Source: Lama glama
Lineage: Eukaryota
DNA: 64,000 bases
Direction: 5' to 3'
NCBI GenBank assembly: GCA_028534125.1
Contig: CM052816.1
Span: forward strand, 35,466,001 to 35,530,000
Part shown: positions 9,980-50,769 of the stretch, in pieces
Position numbering within the stretch: position 1 is the first letter of the stretch
Layout: each line of letters begins with the position of its first letter
The notes under the pieces: generated by a model
Databases searched by the model: none
The model's input: the letters and a program-made list of their open reading frames with translations, nothing else
What the model was told of the DNA's origin: nothing
Made by a program: the position numbers and the translations under genes

Positions 9980-10770
9980 CCAGAAACCTAGGACTCCCCT
10001 TTGAGGCCTTCCTCTTCCTCTGTACCCCTCCCAATCCTTTATGAAGCACTATGATGTTACCTCCTAAACATCTCTTGAATCCATCTATTGTTTCCATATC
10101 TACCCCTAATACCTGGCCTTCAGTTTTCTCTGGGACACACACAGACACACACACACACACATACATACACATGGCCCAACTACCACAATCCATGATCTCC
10201 TTCCTCTCATTTCTGTGCTCTTATAGTCCGTTCCCCAGACGGTACCCAGAGAGGTCTTTTTATAACATCAATCAAGTTACTCCACTCTCCTGAATCAAAT
10301 TTCTTTATTGGCTTCCTTTCACACTGCAAATAAAATCCAAACTCCTTACCATGGCTTTCAAGGCCCTCAATTATCTGACTTTTGCCTCTCTCTCCATTTT
10401 CATTTCCTACAACTCCTCCATCATTCATGGTGCTCCAGACGCATTGACTTTTATCATGCTCCTCCTGTTAGGCACTCCTCTCTCTTTCTAGAATATGCTT
10501 CCTTCCAATCCCCTGGCTCCTTTGTACCACTCAGTTAATTCGATTAAATGTCTATTCCATAGAGAGTCCTTCCTGACCACCAATAGATTTTCGGTCCCTG
10601 TCACATTTTGTAGATAATTTAATCATTTATCCATTTGTTGTTAACCTCCAACACACTATAGGATCTATGAGAACAAATATCTCACCCTTGTGTCTAATTG
10701 TAAATGACATCTAGTAGGCCTTCAATAAATATTTATTAAATGGAATGAAATGAATGAATGAATGAATGAT
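9980..10770 (+). mobile_element. L2 LINE 3' fragment
   Basis: aataaaatccaaactccttaccatggctttcaaggccct...ttcaataaatatttattaaatggaatgaaatgaatgaatgaatg tail. Confidence 0.85.
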
Positions 10771-11162: not shown

Positions 11163-11707
11163 TGTCACTGGCAAAGCACATTAACAAGTCCCAGGAAATA
11201 AAAATAGAATCTGGGTAGCAAAATAAAGTCTAAACATTTTTTTCCTTTGTACTTAGTCTAGTTTCAGTTGCACACAGGGTGCCACGTGCAGAGACCTTGC
11301 ACCCAGCACTTCAGACCAGAGTTCCTAGTGCAAAATGGATGAGCCCAACACTTCAGAAGCACTGCACATGACACTGCAATTCAAGAAGGGCACAGTGTAC
11401 CATCTGTGCACACCACAATGTACAGAAATGTGGCATCTGGCACTTCGATCTGGAGTGCCATGAGCAGCACAGCTGTGCCCTACCCGCAAGAACTCTGCCC
11501 CCTCCCTGCTGACAAGAACCCTATAAAGCAGCCCCACCCATGGCCTTTCAGGGAGAGTCTGTATTCTAGAGTTTGAGATTCTACCACTCCATTCTCTGAT
11601 CAAAAAATACAGCTTTCCTTTGCTACTGAACCAAACTCCATCTCATTCTATTGACTCAGTAGGCAGAAGGACCCTTGTTGGAGACTAACTTGGGAGAGTA
11701 GGTAACA
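11163..11707 (+). repeat. 5' LTR of the provirus
   Basis: TG start, ends ggtaaca; TATAAA at 11522-11527; polyA signal decayed (aataca); 3 CpG counted. Confidence 0.9.
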
Positions 11708-11714
11708 AAATTTC

Positions 11715-11732
11715 TGGCAATTCAGATGGGAC
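11715..11732 (+). promoter_or_regulatory. Primer-binding site, tRNA-Arg type
   Basis: tggcaattcagatgggac matches 15/18 to TGGCGACCCAGATGGGAC, the complement of the tRNA-Arg(CCG) 3' end as recalled; lies 7 nt after the LTR end. Confidence 0.75.
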
Positions 11733-12059: not shown

Positions 12060-13738
12060 CAGTGCCAGACACCCAGTCAAGATGCATCCTGCAGAACTGA
12101 CAGTTCTTCTGGTATCACCCCTGACCCCAAAACATTTGATCTTCCTTTGTAATACAGCCTAGCCCCAATACCTCTGGGAGATGGAGAAACTTGGCCTGTC
12201 AATCTCTAATTACACCACCATTTTACAATTGGACCTGCTATGCTGAAGACAAAAGACAGAAGATGAAATTCCCTATATCCAGTTTTTTATGGCCTTATAT
12301 GAGAACAAAGGCCTTCAAAAGAAACATGGGCTCTCCTCCACTGAGGTAATACCAATCCTTGAACCTCCCCCTGAGGACCTTCTTGACCTCCTCCCTAATC
12401 CTCCACCTACTGCTCCTTCCTTCATATATTCTGATTTGGGGCACAGGCCCAAGGGGCCCCCTCTTCCAGAACCCAGTCCAGCAAATACATGAAGTAGGAC
12501 TAATTACCAGCTAGGGTCCAACAACTTGCCAGGAAAAGTACTCCTTTTGAGGCAGGTCCCCCATGGAGAAGGAGGGCTAATCCAGGTACATGTTCCATTT
12601 ACCACTTCTGATCTATATAAATGAAATCATATCAAGGAGTTGAGGGAAAAACCAGAAGGGTTTCTGAACATGATTAGGGGAATCTTTCAGACCCATGACT
12701 CCACCTGGGCTGAGATCCAGAGCCTCCTTGATGTATTCCTAATGGGGGAAGAAAAGGCCATGGTCTTTTGATAAGCCCAAGAGGAAGTAGACAGAACAGA
12801 AACAATTTAGGTTGTGCAAATTTCAGACCAGGGAATCAAGCATTCCCAGATAACGAACCCAACTGGGACCACCAAGACAATGGAGAGGGGGTGGAAGATA
12901 GAGGCTGATAAATTGGTAGTTCAAGATTTACAGATACTAACTACTATACATAAAATAGGTAACAACAAGTTTATACTGTATAGTATTTAATACCTTGTAG
13001 TAACCTGTAACGGAAAAGAAGATGAAAATGAATATATGCATGCATATGTATGTATATGTATATGTATGACTGAACTATTATACTGTACACCATAAATTAA
13101 CACAACATTATAAACTGACTATACTTTAATTAAAAAAAAAAAAGACCCTAAAGGGAATCCAGGAAGCAAGAAACAAACCTGTCAATTGGAATTAGATAAA
13201 AGAAATCAATCAGGACCCAACAGAAAACCCTTCAGCATTCCTTAGGGAATGCCTCTGACTCTATACTACCACTGACCCTGAGTCATTGGAAGAGAATGCA
13301 ATCCTGAGGCCATATTTCATTTCCCAAAGTGACTCCAACATTAGCTGTAAACTTCAGAACCTGGAAATAGAACTAGATACCCCTACCTCTCGCCTGATCA
13401 AGGTTGCCTATCAGGTATTTAATAACTGAGATATAGAGGAGGAAAAGTCAGAGGATAGAAAGGCCTGGAGGCAAGCCTACCTACTGGCTGTTGCCCTCCT
13501 ATATCAACTGGTTGGCTCAGGAATCTAGACTAACTGCCCAAGGAGACTCCCAACTCCAGTGAATGACTCCTGGCCCCCACCAAGGGATAATAAGCTAAGG
13601 AAACTAGGACCCAACCAGTGCACCATATGTAAATAAGAGGGACACTGGAAGAAAGAATGCCCTTGCCACCCTTGAAGGGGTTGGAAATGGCAGATCCTGA
13701 ACACTCAAGGGCAGATGGTCCAAATAAGTGAAGAATGA
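12060..13738 (+). pseudogene. gag: ERV gag remnant (MA-CA-NC)
   Basis: MA-like LIFLCNTA*PQY...ETWP...NYTTILQLDLLC...EIPYIQFFMAL; CA QVHVPFTTSDL, PTWAEIQSLLDVFL, INQDPTENPSAFL; zinc knuckle CTICK*EGHWKKEC at 13619-13660; ends at TGA before pro. Confidence 0.9.
12885..13143 (+). mobile_element. 5'-truncated artiodactyl-type L1 3' end with polyA tail, inserted into gag
   Basis: gataaattggtagttcaagatttacagatac...tactgtatag...gactgaactattatactgtacacc...acacaacattataaactgactatactttaatt(A)12; CA coding resumes immediately after. Confidence 0.85.
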
Positions 13739-16700
13739 TGGGGCCAGGGGGCTCCTAAGCTGACACTCCAAATGACCCCCATTGAGCCCCAGTTGACATT
13801 AGATATTGGGGAAAGCCTATCAAATTCTTAGTCGACACTGGTGTTACTTACTCGGTTCTGAACATCAGACCAGGTAAATCCAGTCACAAGAGTTGTACAA
13901 GTATGATGGTATCAGGGAAGGCCCTAGAATGGGCATTCATAGAGCCATTAGAATGTAAACTGGATGAACATATGCTCACCCACTTCTTCCTGTATGTCCC
14001 TGAATGCGCTATACTCCTGCTAGGAAGAGATATCTTACATAAATTGGAGGCTACTATCCCCTAATGGGAGACAAGCTGGAGGTTGGTGCCCCCTTAGATA
14101 AAGGCACAAGATGATAATGTTAATGGCTGAGGACAAACCACCCCATATGAGCAAGTTGACCTCCTCAGTGTAAATCTCAAGGTGTGGACCCAGAGACATG
14201 TAGGATGAGCTGTAGGAGCCAGTCCTATGATAGTCCATCTAAAACCCGGACATATATGACCCAATTAAAAAATAGTACCCTCTCTGTTGGGAGGCCTTGT
14301 TGGGCATTGCCCCTGTTAGACAGAGCCTAATTGACCAAGGCCTTATTAAGCCATGCCAGTCAGCATGTACTATCCCCATGCTCCCTGTAAAGAAACCCAG
14401 TGGGGAATACTGGATGGTACAGGACCTCAGGGCAGTCAATGAAGCCACAGAGGATATATATTCAGTAGTCCCTAATCCTGACACCCTGCTATCCACTCTA
14501 CTGTCTACCAGGTCCTGGTATTCTGTATTAGATTTTTAAAATACCTTCTTCTGTATTCCATTAGCCCCAGAGTCACAAGAAATTTTTGCTTTTGAGTGGC
14601 AGGATCCAAATATGCAACCAAAAGAACAATACTTCTGGACAGTCCTGCCCCAAGGGTTCAAAGAGTTCCCCATCATCTTTGGAAAAAACTTTAATAGCTA
14701 AAGACTTAAAAGATCTTCCAGTATGTAGATGATATTTTAGTCACCAGCTACGGAAGCCTCTAACAAAAATACTGTAACCACCCTGAACTACCTAGTTGAT
14801 AAAGGATATAAGGTGTCCAAGAAAGAGGCTCAAATACCACAGACTAGGCTGGACTACTTAGGCTCATTCTCACAGAAGGTCAGAGAAGCCTACCCCAGGA
14901 AAGAAAGAAGCCATTTGCAGCCTCACCCCTCCTAAAACTAGAAGACAGCTTGGGGGTTTCCCTGGGGGGGGGGAATAGCTGGGTTTTGCCTGATCATGGT
15001 CTAATAGGGAGGCCTCTATGCGAAAAGTTGAAAGGATGCTGATCCTTTGGAATGGAATCAGAATGTGAAGGGGCTTTTCAAGAATTGAAAAAGCAGTTAC
15101 TTTAGGCCCTGCCCTGGCCCTCCCAGGTTTAGCTAAACTCTTTGACCTTTACATTTATGAAAGAAGGGGAATTGTCCTCGGGGTATTAGCTCTAAACTGG
15201 ACACTTTCACTCAGATGGTTGCTTATTTCTCTAAACAATCAAACCACTGAGGGACAGCCTCCTGGCTTCAGGGCAGTAGCAGCTACTACAGCCCTGCTCA
15301 AGGAGGCTGAGAAGTTAACGTTTGGTCAGCCAGTCGCTGTGTGAACACCACACCAGGTTCAGGCTTTAAAAGTTCTAAGGAAACAAAATGGCTGTTCCCT
15401 GAAACGTCTATTCAAGTTCAGGCTATGTAACCATAAAACCTGTCACACACTAAATCCTGCCACCTTGCGACCCAGGGAAATGCGGCCCCTGGAGCGTGAC
15501 TGTATAGAAACCATAGACACGATCTATTCTATTCACCCCAACCTAGGAAGAGAGCTTCTCCCAGATGCTGAAGAGGAATAGTTCACAGAACAGAGCAGTT
15601 TTATGAGAGAAAGAAAAAGGCTGGTGGGAGACACAGTGACCTCCCAGACCCAAGAAATAGAGGCAAGAAGCCTACCCCCAGGGACTTCTGCCCCAAAATT
15701 GGAGCTGATAGCCCTCACCTGAGCCTTAGAGCTCAGTCCAGGGAAGATCTTAAGTGTTTACACAGATTCCTGATATGCGTATGCCATCCTACGTGCACAT
15801 ACACACAGGGGTTATTTGGAAGGAAAGAGGTAAGCTTACTGTGGAGAATAAACAAGTGAAACATGGCTTAAGCATACTGAAGAGCTTAGAAGCAGTGCAG
15901 CTTCTGAAAAAGGTGGCAGTGATTCATTGTAGAGGTCACCAAAAGGAGGATGCAGAGGTAATAAAAGAGACAAGGTGGACACAACTGCCAACAGGGCAGC
16001 CCTAGAACAACTAACCTGGCAACTACCCCTCATGCCTCAAAGGCCAGACCCATCCAATTACTCCCCAGCTGACACAAAGGAAGAATTAGACAAAGCCTGA
16101 AAATGGGGCTTCAGTAGAGAGCTAGGAGGCCACGAGTGGCTAATAAACATGGGTAATATGTTTTTCCCCAAGCTGCAGCGTGTCAAGTTTGATGAGAGGG
16201 AAGCTCATGAAGGAACTCACTATAGGAGGAAAGTCTTATATAATCAGTTATTTGACATCATGATAACTCCTGGCATAAAAAGTGTAATCAGTCAAATAGT
16301 TGACACACACCCCATCTGCACAATGAACAACCCTAACACCAGACTCCTCCAGAGGCCCCCAGATAAGGCCCATCCAGACCAGAGGGACCTATCCTGGGAA
16401 GACTGATAGACTGATTTAACTGTCATATTGAGAGTTCTGAGCAATTTCAGGTATCTCTTGGTGTTAACAGACACATTTTCTGGGTGGATAGAAGCATTCT
16501 CTGCTAGAACTGAAATAGCTGCTGAAGTGGCTAAGGCAGTACTAATAGAAATAATCTCCAGATTCATGCTCCCAGGGGTTCCCTACAAAACGATAATGGT
16601 CCAACATTTGTGTCTCAAGTGATAAAGGGAATAACCAGTGCCTTGGGCATAAAATGGACCTTGCACTTAGCCTGGAGACCCTACTGGGCAGTACAGAAAC

Positions 16701-17270
16701 CGAATCAGACCTTGAAACAGGTCCTAGCTAAGCTGTGTCAGGAGACTTGAAAATTGGATTAAGTTGCTTCCAAATGCCCTGCTCTACACACAGTTAGCCT
16801 CAAGGGATAAGTTAAAATTAATTGAGTTTGAACTCCAGTATGGTAGACTATTCCCCACGACCGAGAGAAGGGACACCATAGCCACCTTGAAGTGACACAA
16901 CTCAAATATGCCCTCCAGGTAGGAGAAACCATGAAAAACCCTCATGAATATAGTAACCAGGTGCTGCCTGCACCCAACAACCAGGCCCTCCATCCCTTGT
17001 GGCCAGGACACTGTGTATATCTAAAAATCTGGAAAACCAGCAGCCTGTGAGACCAACTCTCTCCTAAGTGGAACAGACCCTAAGTGGAACAGTGCCCCTA
17101 ATCCCCCATTCTGCCCTGAAGTTGCTGTAGGGGTCACTCTGTGGGTACATCACACTAGAGTGAAGATGGCCCCCGAGCCCCAAACTCTGGAGAGACAGGC
17201 TGGGGCAATGGACCCCCTTGACTACTCATGTGAACCTCTCTCTGACCTGAAGCTGCTCTTCCAGAAAACG
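13739..17270 (+). pseudogene. pol: ERV pro-pol remnant (protease, RT, RNase H, integrase)
   Basis: FLVDTGVTYSVL (DTG at 13834-13842), LLGRDIL; LPVKKPSGEYWMVQDLRAVN, WTVLPQGFK, QYVDD (YVDD at 14722-14733); ELIALT, VAVIHCRGHQK; AHEGTHY, YLLVLTDTFSGWIEAF, WVHHTRVK, YSCEPLSDLKLLF. Confidence 0.95.
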
Positions 17271-17389
17271 ACAAATGTGTGACCAGGGATATTCAGCCCA
17301 CGGCAGTGAGCCTTGACATCAGGGCACACTTTGGTCTACAGCAAAAGACCTAGATACCTTCATTTTTAGAAAAAACTTGACATGTGACC

Positions 17390-17490
17390 ATTAGTCACTT
17401 GCTAATATTCGCACATGTATCTTAAATTGTCTGGTGTCCTTTGTCTCTGAAAGGTTAGACAAATGGTGTCGTGCAGGGGTGTGAACCGTC
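17390..17490 (+). pseudogene. env: env TM / cytoplasmic-tail remnant
   Basis: LLIF/TCILNCLVSFVSERLDK resembles the gamma-type TM end LLFGPCILNRLVQFV...RL; only ~370 bp lie between the IN end and the 3' LTR. Confidence 0.65.
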
Positions 17491-18135
17491 AGGGCCAAGA
17501 CGCAGTGAGAAGCAAGCGGACCTAAAGGCAGCTGAGGAGAAGCACTGCTCCTCCACCCGGGGTCATGGGGACACCCACATCAGCAGGAAATAGTTACGTA
17601 AGACGTACATTTGCCCCTCAGCGCCCATCAGATAGAGAAGGGATTTGTCACTATTAACAATTCCCAGGAAATAAAAATAGAATCTCGGTAATAAATTAAA
17701 CTCTGACCTTTGTTGTCTTCTTTGGGCTTCGCCCAGTTTTACTCGCTCACGGGGTGCCACCTGCAGGGGCTTTGCACCTGGTGCTTCACAGCAGAGTTCC
17801 TTCTGAGAAAAGGCTTCAGTGACACCTCAGCCACGCGGGCTGCGTGCAGAAGCGCTGCCCTCACAGTGCAGTTCAAGATGGCGGCGGCAGGCCGTGTGCA
17901 GAGACGCTGCGGGGGCACTGCGGTCCGTTCAGAGCCCCAGCAGCGCAGCTGCGCATGCTCAGGAGAACGGCCCGGCCCACAGCCTGTGGGACGGCGTGTG
18001 CGCTAGAGCTACGCTCTCACCGCTCCGTTCTTTGATCAAAGAATAAAGCTTTCCTTCACTCCTGATTGAGTTCAGTCTTGTTCTATCGGCTTGAATGATA
18101 CCTGGCAGGAGGACCCTTGTAGGGGACCCACCCGG
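17460..18135. promoter_or_regulatory. CpG-island-like putative promoter within the 3' end of the ERV
   Basis: Only CpG-dense stretch in the window; YY1 CAAGATGGCGGC at 17874-17885; NRF1-like TGCGCATGCTCA at 17950-17961; bZIP palindrome TTACGTAA at 17594-17601. Confidence 0.65.
17631..17645 (+). promoter_or_regulatory. Polypurine tract
   Basis: gatagagaagggatt immediately before the 3' LTR TG. Confidence 0.75.
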
Positions 18136-18149
18136 GAGGATAGAGAACA
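17646..18149 (+). repeat. 3' LTR of the provirus, CpG-rich
   Basis: Aligns to the 5' LTR at both ends; intact AATAAA at 18042-18047; TATA segment missing; ~27 CpG counted. Confidence 0.9.
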
Positions 18150-18575
18150 GGAGCTGTGCCAGTATTTGGGTCCAGGCCTTAAGGGACCAGTAGCTTACAC
18201 TTCCTGCCATGGGAAACACTCTCTTAGAGCCCTGAGCCCCCGGGTTAGAAGCTCAGCTACACTGTGGAAAGATGATGTGGAGGAGGTTCTGAAACCACAG
18301 GCAAGGGAAAGGGTCCCACCTGAGTCCGGACATCATTCAACACAAATGAAGCACCAGACAGATGAATGAACCCTTCTTGGACCCTCCCAATCTAAACAGT
18401 CATCAAGTGAATAAGACTGAGTGACCCCAATCAATGCTCCATGGGACAGAAGAATTACTTAGCTGTGCCCTGCCAAAATTCCTAACCCGCAGATTTTGAG
18501 CTTAATGAAATAACTATTGTTTTAAGGGATTAAATTTTGGGTGGTTTGTGAAGTAACAATAGAGGACAAGACAAG
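18150..18575 (+). mobile_element. MLT1G/H-like LTR, 3' part
   Basis: gctgtgccagt...ccaggccttaag...agccctgagc...ttaaattttgggtggtttgtgaagtaacaatag. Confidence 0.8.
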
Positions 18576-31220: not shown

Positions 31221-31720
31221 NNNNNNNNNNNNNNNNNNNNNNNNNNNNNNNNNNNNNNNNNNNNNNNNNNNNNNNNNNNNNNNNNNNNNNNNNNNNNNNN
31301 NNNNNNNNNNNNNNNNNNNNNNNNNNNNNNNNNNNNNNNNNNNNNNNNNNNNNNNNNNNNNNNNNNNNNNNNNNNNNNNNNNNNNNNNNNNNNNNNNNNN
31401 NNNNNNNNNNNNNNNNNNNNNNNNNNNNNNNNNNNNNNNNNNNNNNNNNNNNNNNNNNNNNNNNNNNNNNNNNNNNNNNNNNNNNNNNNNNNNNNNNNNN
31501 NNNNNNNNNNNNNNNNNNNNNNNNNNNNNNNNNNNNNNNNNNNNNNNNNNNNNNNNNNNNNNNNNNNNNNNNNNNNNNNNNNNNNNNNNNNNNNNNNNNN
31601 NNNNNNNNNNNNNNNNNNNNNNNNNNNNNNNNNNNNNNNNNNNNNNNNNNNNNNNNNNNNNNNNNNNNNNNNNNNNNNNNNNNNNNNNNNNNNNNNNNNN
31701 NNNNNNNNNNNNNNNNNNNN
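31221..31720. other. Assembly gap (500 N)
   Basis: Run of N. Confidence 1.
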
Positions 31721-50019: not shown

Positions 50020-50769
50020 GCATAGAGATTAAACAATATGTTATTGAAAAAACAATGGATCAATGAGGAAATCAAAGCTGAAATTAAAAAATACCTTGAG
50101 ACAAATGATAATGAAAGCACAACCANNNNNNNNNNNNNNNNNNNNNNNNNNNNNNNNNNNNNNNNNNNNNNNNNNNNNNNNNNNNNNNNNNNNNNNNNNN
50201 NNNNNNNNNNNNNNNNNNNNNNNNNNNNNNNNNNNNNNNNNNNNNNNNNNNNNNNNNNNNNNNNNNNNNNNNNNNNNNNNNNNNNNNNNNNNNNNNNNNN
50301 NNNNNNNNNNNNNNNNNNNNNNNNNNNNNNNNNNNNNNNNNNNNNNNNNNNNNNNNNNNNNNNNNNNNNNNNNNNNNNNNNNNNNNNNNNNNNNNNNNNN
50401 NNNNNNNNNNNNNNNNNNNNNNNNNNNNNNNNNNNNNNNNNNNNNNNNNNNNNNNNNNNNNNNNNNNNNNNNNNNNNNNNNNNNNNNNNNNNNNNNNNNN
50501 NNNNNNNNNNNNNNNNNNNNNNNNNNNNNNNNNNNNNNNNNNNNNNNNNNNNNNNNNNNNNNNNNNNNNNNNNNNNNNNNNNNNNNNNNNNNNNNNNNNN
50601 NNNNNNNNNNNNNNNNNNNNNNNNNAAAATGTTATGATAAATCACAGAGAAAAAAATGTGACAATGAGTGTGCATATGTCCATGAATGACTGAAAAATTG
50701 TGCTGAACACTGGAATTTGACACAACATTGTAAAATGATTATAAGTCAATAAAAAATGTTAAAAAAAAA
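50020..50769 (+). mobile_element. Young L1 flanking the gap (ORF2 piece left, 3' end right)
   Basis: RLNNMLLKKQWINEEIKAEIKKYLETNDNESTT is L1 ORF2 just after the endonuclease; the right side is an L1 3'UTR ending aataaaaaatgttaaaaaaaaa. Confidence 0.85.
50126..50625. other. Assembly gap (500 N)
   Basis: Run of N. Confidence 1.

Follow-up and report, generated by a model that had tools for sequence, protein, structure and literature searches.

CpG-rich 3' and CpG-poor 5' long terminal repeats across the sampled copies of an ancient provirus family in Lama glama

A stretch of 64,000 nucleotides of the Lama glama genome (GCA_028534125.1, contig CM052816.1, positions 35,466,001 to 35,530,000 of the forward strand; hereafter the window) contains an ancient, degraded and apparently env-less provirus of probable gammaretrovirus-like type at approximately 11.16-18.15 kb, whose 3' long terminal repeat (LTR) is rich in CpG while its 5' LTR has almost none. 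A first-pass annotation of the window had taken this difference as the sign of a 3' LTR adopted by the host as a promoter. We found the same difference across the sampled family of related copies, as the CpG density of the 3' LTR was higher in all 12 proviruses for which both LTRs were available (Wilcoxon p = 0.0005), and the asymmetry was specific to changes at CpG. Since almost every sampled provirus shows a rich 3' and a poor 5' LTR, the pattern is a mark of the family and not of adoption at a single locus. It is probable, though by no means certain, that the 3' and solo LTRs of this family escaped germ-line methylation while the 5' LTRs were methylated in cis, the window copy being an ordinary member in this respect.

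The two LTRs of the window provirus and the CpG-rich stretch were delimited as follows.
11163..11707, plus strand: 5' LTR, from repeat pairing, family termini and CpG counts; TATAAA kept at 11522.
17646..18149, plus strand: 3' LTR, from family termini and CpG counts; 10-bp deletion just inside its start, without TATAAA.
17440..18145, no strand: CpG-island stretch of 706 bp, guanine-plus-cytosine (GC) fraction 0.552, 35 CpG, observed/expected CpG ratio (o/e) 0.65.

The counts of 3 CpG in the 5' LTR and about 27 in the 3' LTR given by the first-pass annotation were reproduced, with 3 in 545-548 bp (o/e 0.10) and 27 in 504-505 bp (o/e 0.70). The densities were 0.55 and 5.35 per 100 bp, respectively (Fisher p = 2e-6 on dinucleotide counts). 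The CpG richness also extended upstream of the 3' LTR as had been described, with eight more CpG in the 185 bp at 17460-17644, but the segment named there as an env remnant appears to be conserved non-coding sequence, in which no env-like frame was found. A CpG island has a length of at least 500 bp, a GC fraction of at least 0.55 and an o/e of at least 0.65. The stretch 17440-18145, the longest to reach these values of GC and o/e, was the sole CpG-island stretch of the window. The o/e over the whole 64 kb was 0.16, and 500-bp windows with an o/e above 0.5 were located only at 17251-18250.

Genome searches with the two window LTRs gave 390 and 485 candidates, and the best 40 of each were scored, giving long matches of 66-77% identity. 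Most of an initial set of 45 other copies equalled the window 3' LTR in CpG richness. Both ends of the internal region were used as LTR-free baits to class the copies as 5', 3' or without internal flank. The best 40 of 94 candidates were scored for the 3' internal query, from which 30 loci were kept, and the best 40 of 63 candidates for the 5' internal query, at whose loci short stretches were taken. The LTRs adjacent to the baits were delimited with a mixed panel that contained LTRs both rich and poor in CpG, and obvious duplicates (L003-L005, L007, L008, L013, L058, L063 and L070) were excluded. The final sample, in which solo-like copies are those without internal sequence in their flanks, had the following CpG content.
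5' LTRs: n = 23, median CpG 7, median o/e 0.26.
3' LTRs: n = 30, median CpG 23.5, median o/e 0.67.
Solo-like copies: n = 27, median CpG 27, median o/e 0.65.

The CpG counts of the 5' and 3' LTRs differed with p = 1.3e-7 (Mann-Whitney), and the within-provirus comparison gave, for example, 0.74 and 5.02 CpG per 100 bp for the 5' and 3' LTRs of one pair and 1.43 and 7.56 for those of another. An asymmetry of this kind could be produced by the search itself, if CpG-rich queries recovered CpG-rich 3' ends and CpG-poor queries recovered poor 5' ends. Scoring of the best 40 candidates per search with LTR queries unequal in CpG would work in this direction. We consider this highly improbable, because the 5' and 3' LTRs were located with queries free of LTR sequence and delimited with the mixed panel, the matches of the 3' internal query had a median of 3 CpG in the segment in which the query itself carries 8, and the difference held within each of the 12 proviruses. 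In addition, eight copies without internal flank that were recovered with a CpG-poor query carried 10-28 CpG in the main LTR block (two of them were split in two blocks).

The CpG profile of 24 3' LTRs peaked 200-300 bp into the LTR with 9.6 CpG per 100 bp, a GC fraction of 0.67 and an o/e of 0.85. The internal region and the host flanks of the same loci had an o/e of 0.1-0.3, and the island was confined to the LTR. Decile profiles gave core o/e values of 0.88-0.93 for the 3' LTRs and 0.38-0.44 for the 5' LTRs. At the CpG sites shared by the family, CG was mostly kept in 3' and solo-like copies, whereas TG or CA was mostly found in 5' copies, as illustrated by site 17905 with 12 CG and 3 TG/CA among the 3' LTRs versus 2 CG and 14 TG/CA among the 5' LTRs. 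Conservation per column was approximately 0.8-0.9 at 17265-17645 and in the LTR at 17646-17830, and approximately 0.56-0.69 in the CpG-rich core. This low core conservation may reflect either faster evolution in the 3' and solo copies or harder alignment. In the LTR profiles a gap is scored as lack of conservation, and truncation affects opposite ends of the LTR in the different classes, for which reason class differences were not interpreted. Literature searches, where primes are unsearchable and an empty result is weak evidence, found no paper in which an asymmetry in CpG between 5' and 3' LTRs is described for a whole family of endogenous retroviruses (ERVs).

The differences between the two LTRs of a provirus were polarised by the commonest letter among the other copies. 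In ten pairs, CpG-to-TpG/CpA losses numbered 116 on the 5' lineages and 21 on the 3' lineages, while all other changes amounted to 532 and 553, respectively, with 84 unassigned, and the asymmetry is therefore CpG-specific. The losses comprised 51 C>T and 65 G>A changes. As both directions were found, the losses agree with methyl-cytosine having deaminated on either strand, which editing of a single strand would not produce, and APOBEC-type editing was thus ruled out as the source of the losses in the 5' LTRs. In the window pair, the 5' lineage had 12 CpG-type losses and the 3' lineage had 0, from which the long-term unmethylated state that the first-pass annotation had suggested for the 3' LTR can fairly be presumed. 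The Kimura two-parameter (K2P) distance between the LTRs of one provirus, calculated at non-CpG positions, had a median of 0.34, which is approximately 0.17 substitutions per site per lineage. With a mammalian substitution rate near 2e-9 per site per year, the age of the family would be about some tens of millions of years. In elements of this age, methylated CpGs should be nearly gone.

The 3' LTRs also gained GC. Outside the CpG context, nine pairs showed 213 weak-to-strong and 99 strong-to-weak changes on the 3' lineages versus 129 and 123 on the 5' lineages (Fisher p = 4.5e-5), and CpG-creating changes numbered 62 on the 3' lineages and 13 on the 5' lineages. In the window pair, with CpG sites included, the corresponding weak-to-strong and strong-to-weak numbers were 32 and 26 for the 3' LTR, and 8 and 40 for the 5' LTR. 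The first-pass annotation had proposed to separate gain from retention of CpG by alignment with the family. This comparison bore out retention at 12 of the 27 CpG of the window 3' LTR, which lie at shared family sites, but not at the other 15, of which six are at sites with mostly TG/CA in other copies and nine are private. The CpG-rich state is thus in part retention and in part gain, as one would expect for unmethylated DNA and perhaps also for biased gene conversion at promoter-like hot spots.

GC-biased gene conversion might even be the main driver, if 3' and solo LTRs acted as promoter-like recombination hot spots, methylated or not. The weak-to-strong excess and the CpG-creating changes on the 3' lineages would both be accounted for, and the fate of TATAAA agrees with such a drive, as this motif survives in 9/23 5' LTRs but in only 3/30 3' LTRs and 4/27 other copies. 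A study on dog describes unmethylated CpG islands that attract recombination and gain GC (PMC4350167), and for placental mammals hot spots independent of PRDM9 have been reported (PMC11161765). Two 13-mers of carnivore SINEs had no match in the window, which thus gives no indication of a canid genome. Gene conversion, however, leaves the exemption of the 5' LTRs unexplained, since the two LTRs are identical at insertion, and a difference in chromatin would still be needed. Many of the CpGs in the 3' LTRs moreover occupy ancestral sites common to the family (median 12.5 of 23.5), which represents retention, and polarising by the commonest letter among mostly GC-rich copies may bias the direction of the changes. 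We thus regard gene conversion as an unlikely main cause of the asymmetry.

The escape of 3' and solo LTRs from germ-line methylation, which we favour, would proceed in the following manner. The central 300 bp of the family LTR, a dense CpG block with a YY1-type site and GC boxes, would act as a self-standing CpG island and, like CpG islands in general, be unmethylated by default. The 3' LTRs and the copies without internal sequence would have largely escaped germ-line methylation since insertion, keeping their ancestral CpGs and drifting towards GC, while the 5' LTRs would have been methylated and have lost their CpGs through deamination. As the 5' LTRs differ only in the adjoining sequence, a cis-acting silencer is the simplest account, and silencing of the 5' LTR would probably start in cis from the leader or the interior of the provirus. 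Recruitment of KRAB-zinc-finger proteins and TRIM28 at or near the primer-binding site is a possible silencer. Transcript-guided silencing, which needs proviral RNA, could be the alternative. We infer both the methylation states and the silencing in cis. On this account, the window 3' LTR is probably a promoter-like orphan CpG island that is free of methylation in the germ line. It is also conceivable, and we propose it tentatively, that the copies of the family constitute a long-term record of position-dependent silencing, in which the 3' or solo LTR persists as an unmethylated, GC-gaining island and the 5' LTR is methylated and decays.

Several points weigh against this explanation. Five of the 30 3' LTRs are CpG-poor with 7-10 CpG (L066, L067, L075, L077 and L080), and one 5' LTR, L069, is CpG-rich with 22 CpG in 325 bp, located on a 2-kb contig with the interior of the provirus mostly deleted. 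Two of the 12 pairs (C36) are perhaps partly dependent, their 3' LTRs being 86% alike. About half of the CpGs of the window copy (the 6 + 9 described above) are at sites that are not CG in other copies, and gain therefore counts beside retention. The sample consists of the best 40 of 63-485 candidates per search and is no census, and the queries were unequal in CpG; the 3' internal query carried 8 CpG in its last 185 bp, with a median of only 3 in its matches. Alignments at approximately 70% identity are uncertain, above all in the LTR core. Furthermore, TRIM28-dependent heterochromatin covers whole proviruses in mouse embryonic stem cells, with the 3' LTR not obviously spared, and these mouse data give no account of silencing that spares a 3' LTR only 6 kb away.

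Some of these copies have additional characteristics. L069 and L070, on two 2-kb contigs with 22 and 21 CpG in 325 bp, represent the only CpG-rich 5' LTR found in the sample. Their deleted interior could hint at a silencer in the deleted part, and the short provirus L088/L072, with a CpG-poor 5' LTR, is a counter-case. Two proviruses located approximately 1.8 Mb apart on one chromosome-scale contig (compared as L062 against L074 and L087 against L046) both have the same 155-bp piece of an LTR upstream. The identity is 86% between the 3' LTRs of the two and only 71.5% between the 5' LTRs, so that the 3' ends alone seem to have undergone partial duplication or conversion long ago.

The proposal of the first-pass annotation was specific to the locus, namely that the window 3' LTR is an active promoter adopted by the host. 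In its full form, the LTR would be the CpG-island promoter of a host transcript and would have been kept unmethylated by selection or constant activity. This proposal can draw on the presence of a sequence with CpG-island properties found nowhere else in the 64 kb, on an intact YY1-type motif, and on an island wider upstream than in most copies, since the 8 CpG in the last 185 bp before the LTR rank joint third of 24 copies (median 3). The CpG content of the LTR itself was nevertheless ordinary for its class, as its 27 CpG compare with a median of 23.5 for all 3' LTRs, or of 22.5 for the set of 24 loci, and its 12 CpG at shared sites with a median of 12.5. The window 3' LTR was therefore not preserved beyond other copies of the family by either measure. 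The 5' LTR had been used as an internal control for decay, and it is unusable as a neutral control because the same asymmetry was found across the family. As the CpG-rich 3' and CpG-dead 5' LTR represent a family-wide pattern, the main argument for exaptation is removed. In addition, no Pfam domain was detected in the 23 tested of 45 open frames of at least 90 aa (21 outside the provirus and the runs of N, and 2 over the 3' LTR), although this is a weak test for exons. Among 22 listed sequencing runs, four RNA runs of one study labelled as reproductive system contained 0.09-0.19 of the sampled words and six DNA-like runs 0.59-0.72, and shares as small as those of the RNA runs do not count as evidence of expression. 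Together with the loss of TATAAA and the private nature of the NRF1-like motif, these results make host adoption at this locus quite unlikely. Another alternative raised by the first-pass annotation was a 3' LTR belonging to a young, CpG-rich subfamily. The best identity of the window 3' LTR to 77 other copies was 74.3% (median 70.3%), and replacement by, or gene conversion from, such a subfamily was thus ruled out.

The two motifs described in the first-pass annotation were both found in the window 3' LTR.
17874..17885, plus strand: CAAGATGGCGGC, YY1-type motif; the 12-mer occurs in 13/30 3' LTRs, 15/27 solo-like copies and 0/23 5' LTRs.
17950..17961, plus strand: TGCGCATGCTCA, NRF1-like near-match, private to the window copy in the family comparison.

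The counterparts of these strings in the 5' LTR are located at 11382 and 11474. We presume that YY1 and NRF1 are the factors to be named for CAAGATGGCGGC and TGCGCATGCTCA, respectively. The YY1-type motif is indeed intact, but it is inherited from the LTR family and is for this reason no sign of adoption here. The exact 11-mer AAGATGGCGGC was present in 13/30 3' LTRs, 16/27 solo-like copies and 0/23 5' LTRs, and its two CpGs are the best-kept in the family. The NRF1-like string is a near-match private to the window copy. The full palindrome GCGCATGCGC was found in 0/80 copies, which ruled out NRF1 as a family factor, and the half-site occurred in 3/30 3' LTRs, 4/27 solo-like copies and 0/23 5' LTRs. 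The other copies have at this position a longer and different sequence that includes a GC box. The window 3' LTR is approximately 35 bp shorter near 17950-17965, where other copies carry a GC box and a TATA box. Another string, CGCGAGA, which we take to be half of the TCTCGCGAGA promoter motif, was present in 9/30 3' LTRs, 8/27 other copies and 1/23 5' LTRs (copies L058-L086 and L017-L055) and in neither window LTR. A CTCF-type border before the 3' LTR was also considered, and a near-match to the CTCF motif at approximately 17550-17565 was rejected, as it was not conserved in 23 other copies.

The remaining features of the provirus are listed below.
11715..11732, plus strand: putative primer-binding site, read from the sequence, starting with TGG 7 nt past the 5' LTR.
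12625..13426, plus strand: gag remnant (capsid) with stops and frameshifts; Gag_p30, E 2.9e-5 and 1.4e-3.
13786..14061, plus strand: remnant of a retroviral aspartyl protease; RVP, E 6.7e-9, 36.4 bits, above the Pfam cut-off of 20.7.
14276..14698, plus strand: reverse transcriptase remnant, from its translation and RVT_1, E 8.1e-5 on 14540-14698.
16101..17279, plus strand: integrase remnant and end of pol; Integrase_H2C2, E 0.0097; rve, E 5e-6 and 0.0096.
17280..17645, plus strand: conserved non-coding segment from pol to the 3' LTR, from conservation across copies; 8 CpG in its last 185 bp.
17630..17643, plus strand: purine tract AGATAGAGAAGGGA before the 3' LTR; similar tracts at the 3' junctions of other copies.
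18042..18047, plus strand: AATAAA polyadenylation signal of the 3' LTR, from the sequence.

The gag-pro-pol remnants are enclosed by direct repeats of the same orientation at 11180-11707 and 17653-18149 with 72-83% identity. Comparison with other family copies set the LTR termini as TGTCAC...GTAACA and thereby the boundaries at 11163-11707 and 17646-18149. The two LTRs are approximately 69-75% alike (68.7% in the pair alignment used for polarising). The Gag_p30 scores of 24.2 and 18.6 bits were lower than the Pfam cut-off of 27.4, and the RVT_1 and rve matches were also below their cut-offs, the pieces being short and broken. Strings related to TGG...GAAGGGAC were located behind the 5' LTR in six other family copies, at the place of the window string at 11715-11732. 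The last plus-strand frame of pol stops at 17279, and no plus-strand frame of at least 45 aa was found between the end of pol (approximately 17279) and the 3' LTR. The 370 bp ahead of the 3' LTR showed column conservation of 0.76-0.91 among 23 other copies, and the contiguous junction from the pol end to the LTR was also seen in approximately 20 other genomic copies among the best-scoring matches. As this junction is identical in those copies, the retrovirus family appears to be env-less.

The 4-bp flanks of the provirus were GTGA and GGAG (1/4 identical), and no target-site duplication was detected between them. A GGAG/GGAG duplication was initially considered and dropped, since the family termini shift the LTR start by 3 bp and the GGAG lies 3 bp upstream. 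In an element this old, the duplication may have been lost. A 4-bp duplication, TTAA/TTAA, was present at the solo-like copy L039. A genome search with 230 bp of 5' flank and 271 bp of 3' flank, carried out for reconstruction of the empty site, returned the locus itself and one 68-bp match, and no paralogue was found. The 64-kb window contained no further LTR pairs for an internal comparison.

These flanks bear on the possibility that the two window LTRs are not twins of one integration, being for instance the ends of a recombinant of two proviruses, in which case the 5' LTR would be no control at all. The mismatched flanks and the missing flank paralogue agree with this possibility, and so does the identity of the pair, 68.7% compared with a mean of 70.8% for unrelated 5'-3' pairs. 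On the other hand, gag, pro and pol are collinear in one orientation with the putative primer-binding site and purine tract in place, a 4-bp duplication is often erased at approximately 0.17 substitutions per site per lineage, and a burst of insertions from similar sources makes all copies equally distant. We thus consider a mixed origin of the two LTRs very unlikely, and the conclusion on the family was built on 12 pairs and not on the window pair alone.

Additional observations were made along the window. A (GAAT)n-like microsatellite is located upstream of the provirus at 10740-10765, and the 5' and 3' host flanks look like pieces of one older interspersed repeat, for which no paralogue was found in the genome searches. 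Approximately 10 bp (GGCAAAGCCCA-like), present in nearly all other copies, are gone from the window 3' LTR near 17646-17660. The segments at 31221-31720 and 50126-50625 are assembly gaps of exactly 500 N each, which give rise to spurious long open frames in their surroundings.

The family-wide asymmetry is more interesting than the single locus in the window. If the escape of the 3' and solo LTRs from methylation is true, silencing of proviruses in the germ line would start in the 5' leader or interior, and reach the promoter LTR without extending to the 3' LTR. Dozens of LTRs in the 3' or solo position would in that case survive as orphan CpG islands, and possibly as hot spots of recombination. 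If the asymmetry also holds in a census and in bisulfite data, it would provide a cheap read-out of the germ-line methylation of LTRs over deep time that needs only sequence. It would likewise offer a natural experiment on whether a CpG-dense LTR escapes or attracts methylation, contrasting silencing linked to the 5' leader with the CpG-island identity of the LTR itself, with a possible link to GC-biased gene conversion. Ages of proviruses that are estimated from LTR divergence are distorted if evolution follows unequal regimes in the two LTRs.

The Lama glama family resembles class I (gammaretrovirus-like) ERVs in its collinear remnants of Gag_p30, RVP, RVT_1 and rve and in the 4-bp duplication at L039, and differs from them in that no env was detected. 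A cis-acting silencer adjoining the 5' LTR and absent from solo LTRs is known from mouse, where ZFP809 recruits KAP1 and SETDB1 to the primer-binding sites of ERVs (PMC4358406). The conserved putative primer-binding string behind the 5' LTRs of the llama family is similar to the proline-type site (PBS-Pro) of that system in its position; in contrast, the llama family is without a known binding factor, and the sparing of the 3' LTR is not accounted for by such a mechanism. The provirus of human T-cell leukaemia virus type 1 (HTLV-1) is described as methylated in its 5' part and unmethylated in its 3' part, the 3' LTR included (PMC8781281). Within one provirus, the methylation mark is thus on the 5' LTR and not on the 3' LTR, with a border near the 3' end, as would be the case here. 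HTLV-1 is, however, exogenous and was described there in somatic T cells with the border tied to a CTCF site, whereas the llama pattern is an evolutionary footprint of germ-line CpG over many endogenous copies, and the CTCF-like string at the border is not conserved in the family. The recombination-associated CpG islands of dog (PMC4350167) are comparable in the weak-to-strong excess and the gain of CpG in CpG-rich copies, while the llama data consist of substitution patterns alone. There is also a likeness to the orphan and transposon-derived CpG islands (LTRs acting as CpG-island promoters), with which the llama LTRs share a block of GC 0.55-0.7 and o/e 0.65-0.9 inside the LTR, far from a recognised gene, and promoter-type motifs (the YY1-type site, GC boxes and, in some copies, CGCGAGA). 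The state seen here, known from sequence alone, is not that of one adopted locus but extends to the majority of 3' and solo-like copies in a family of great age.

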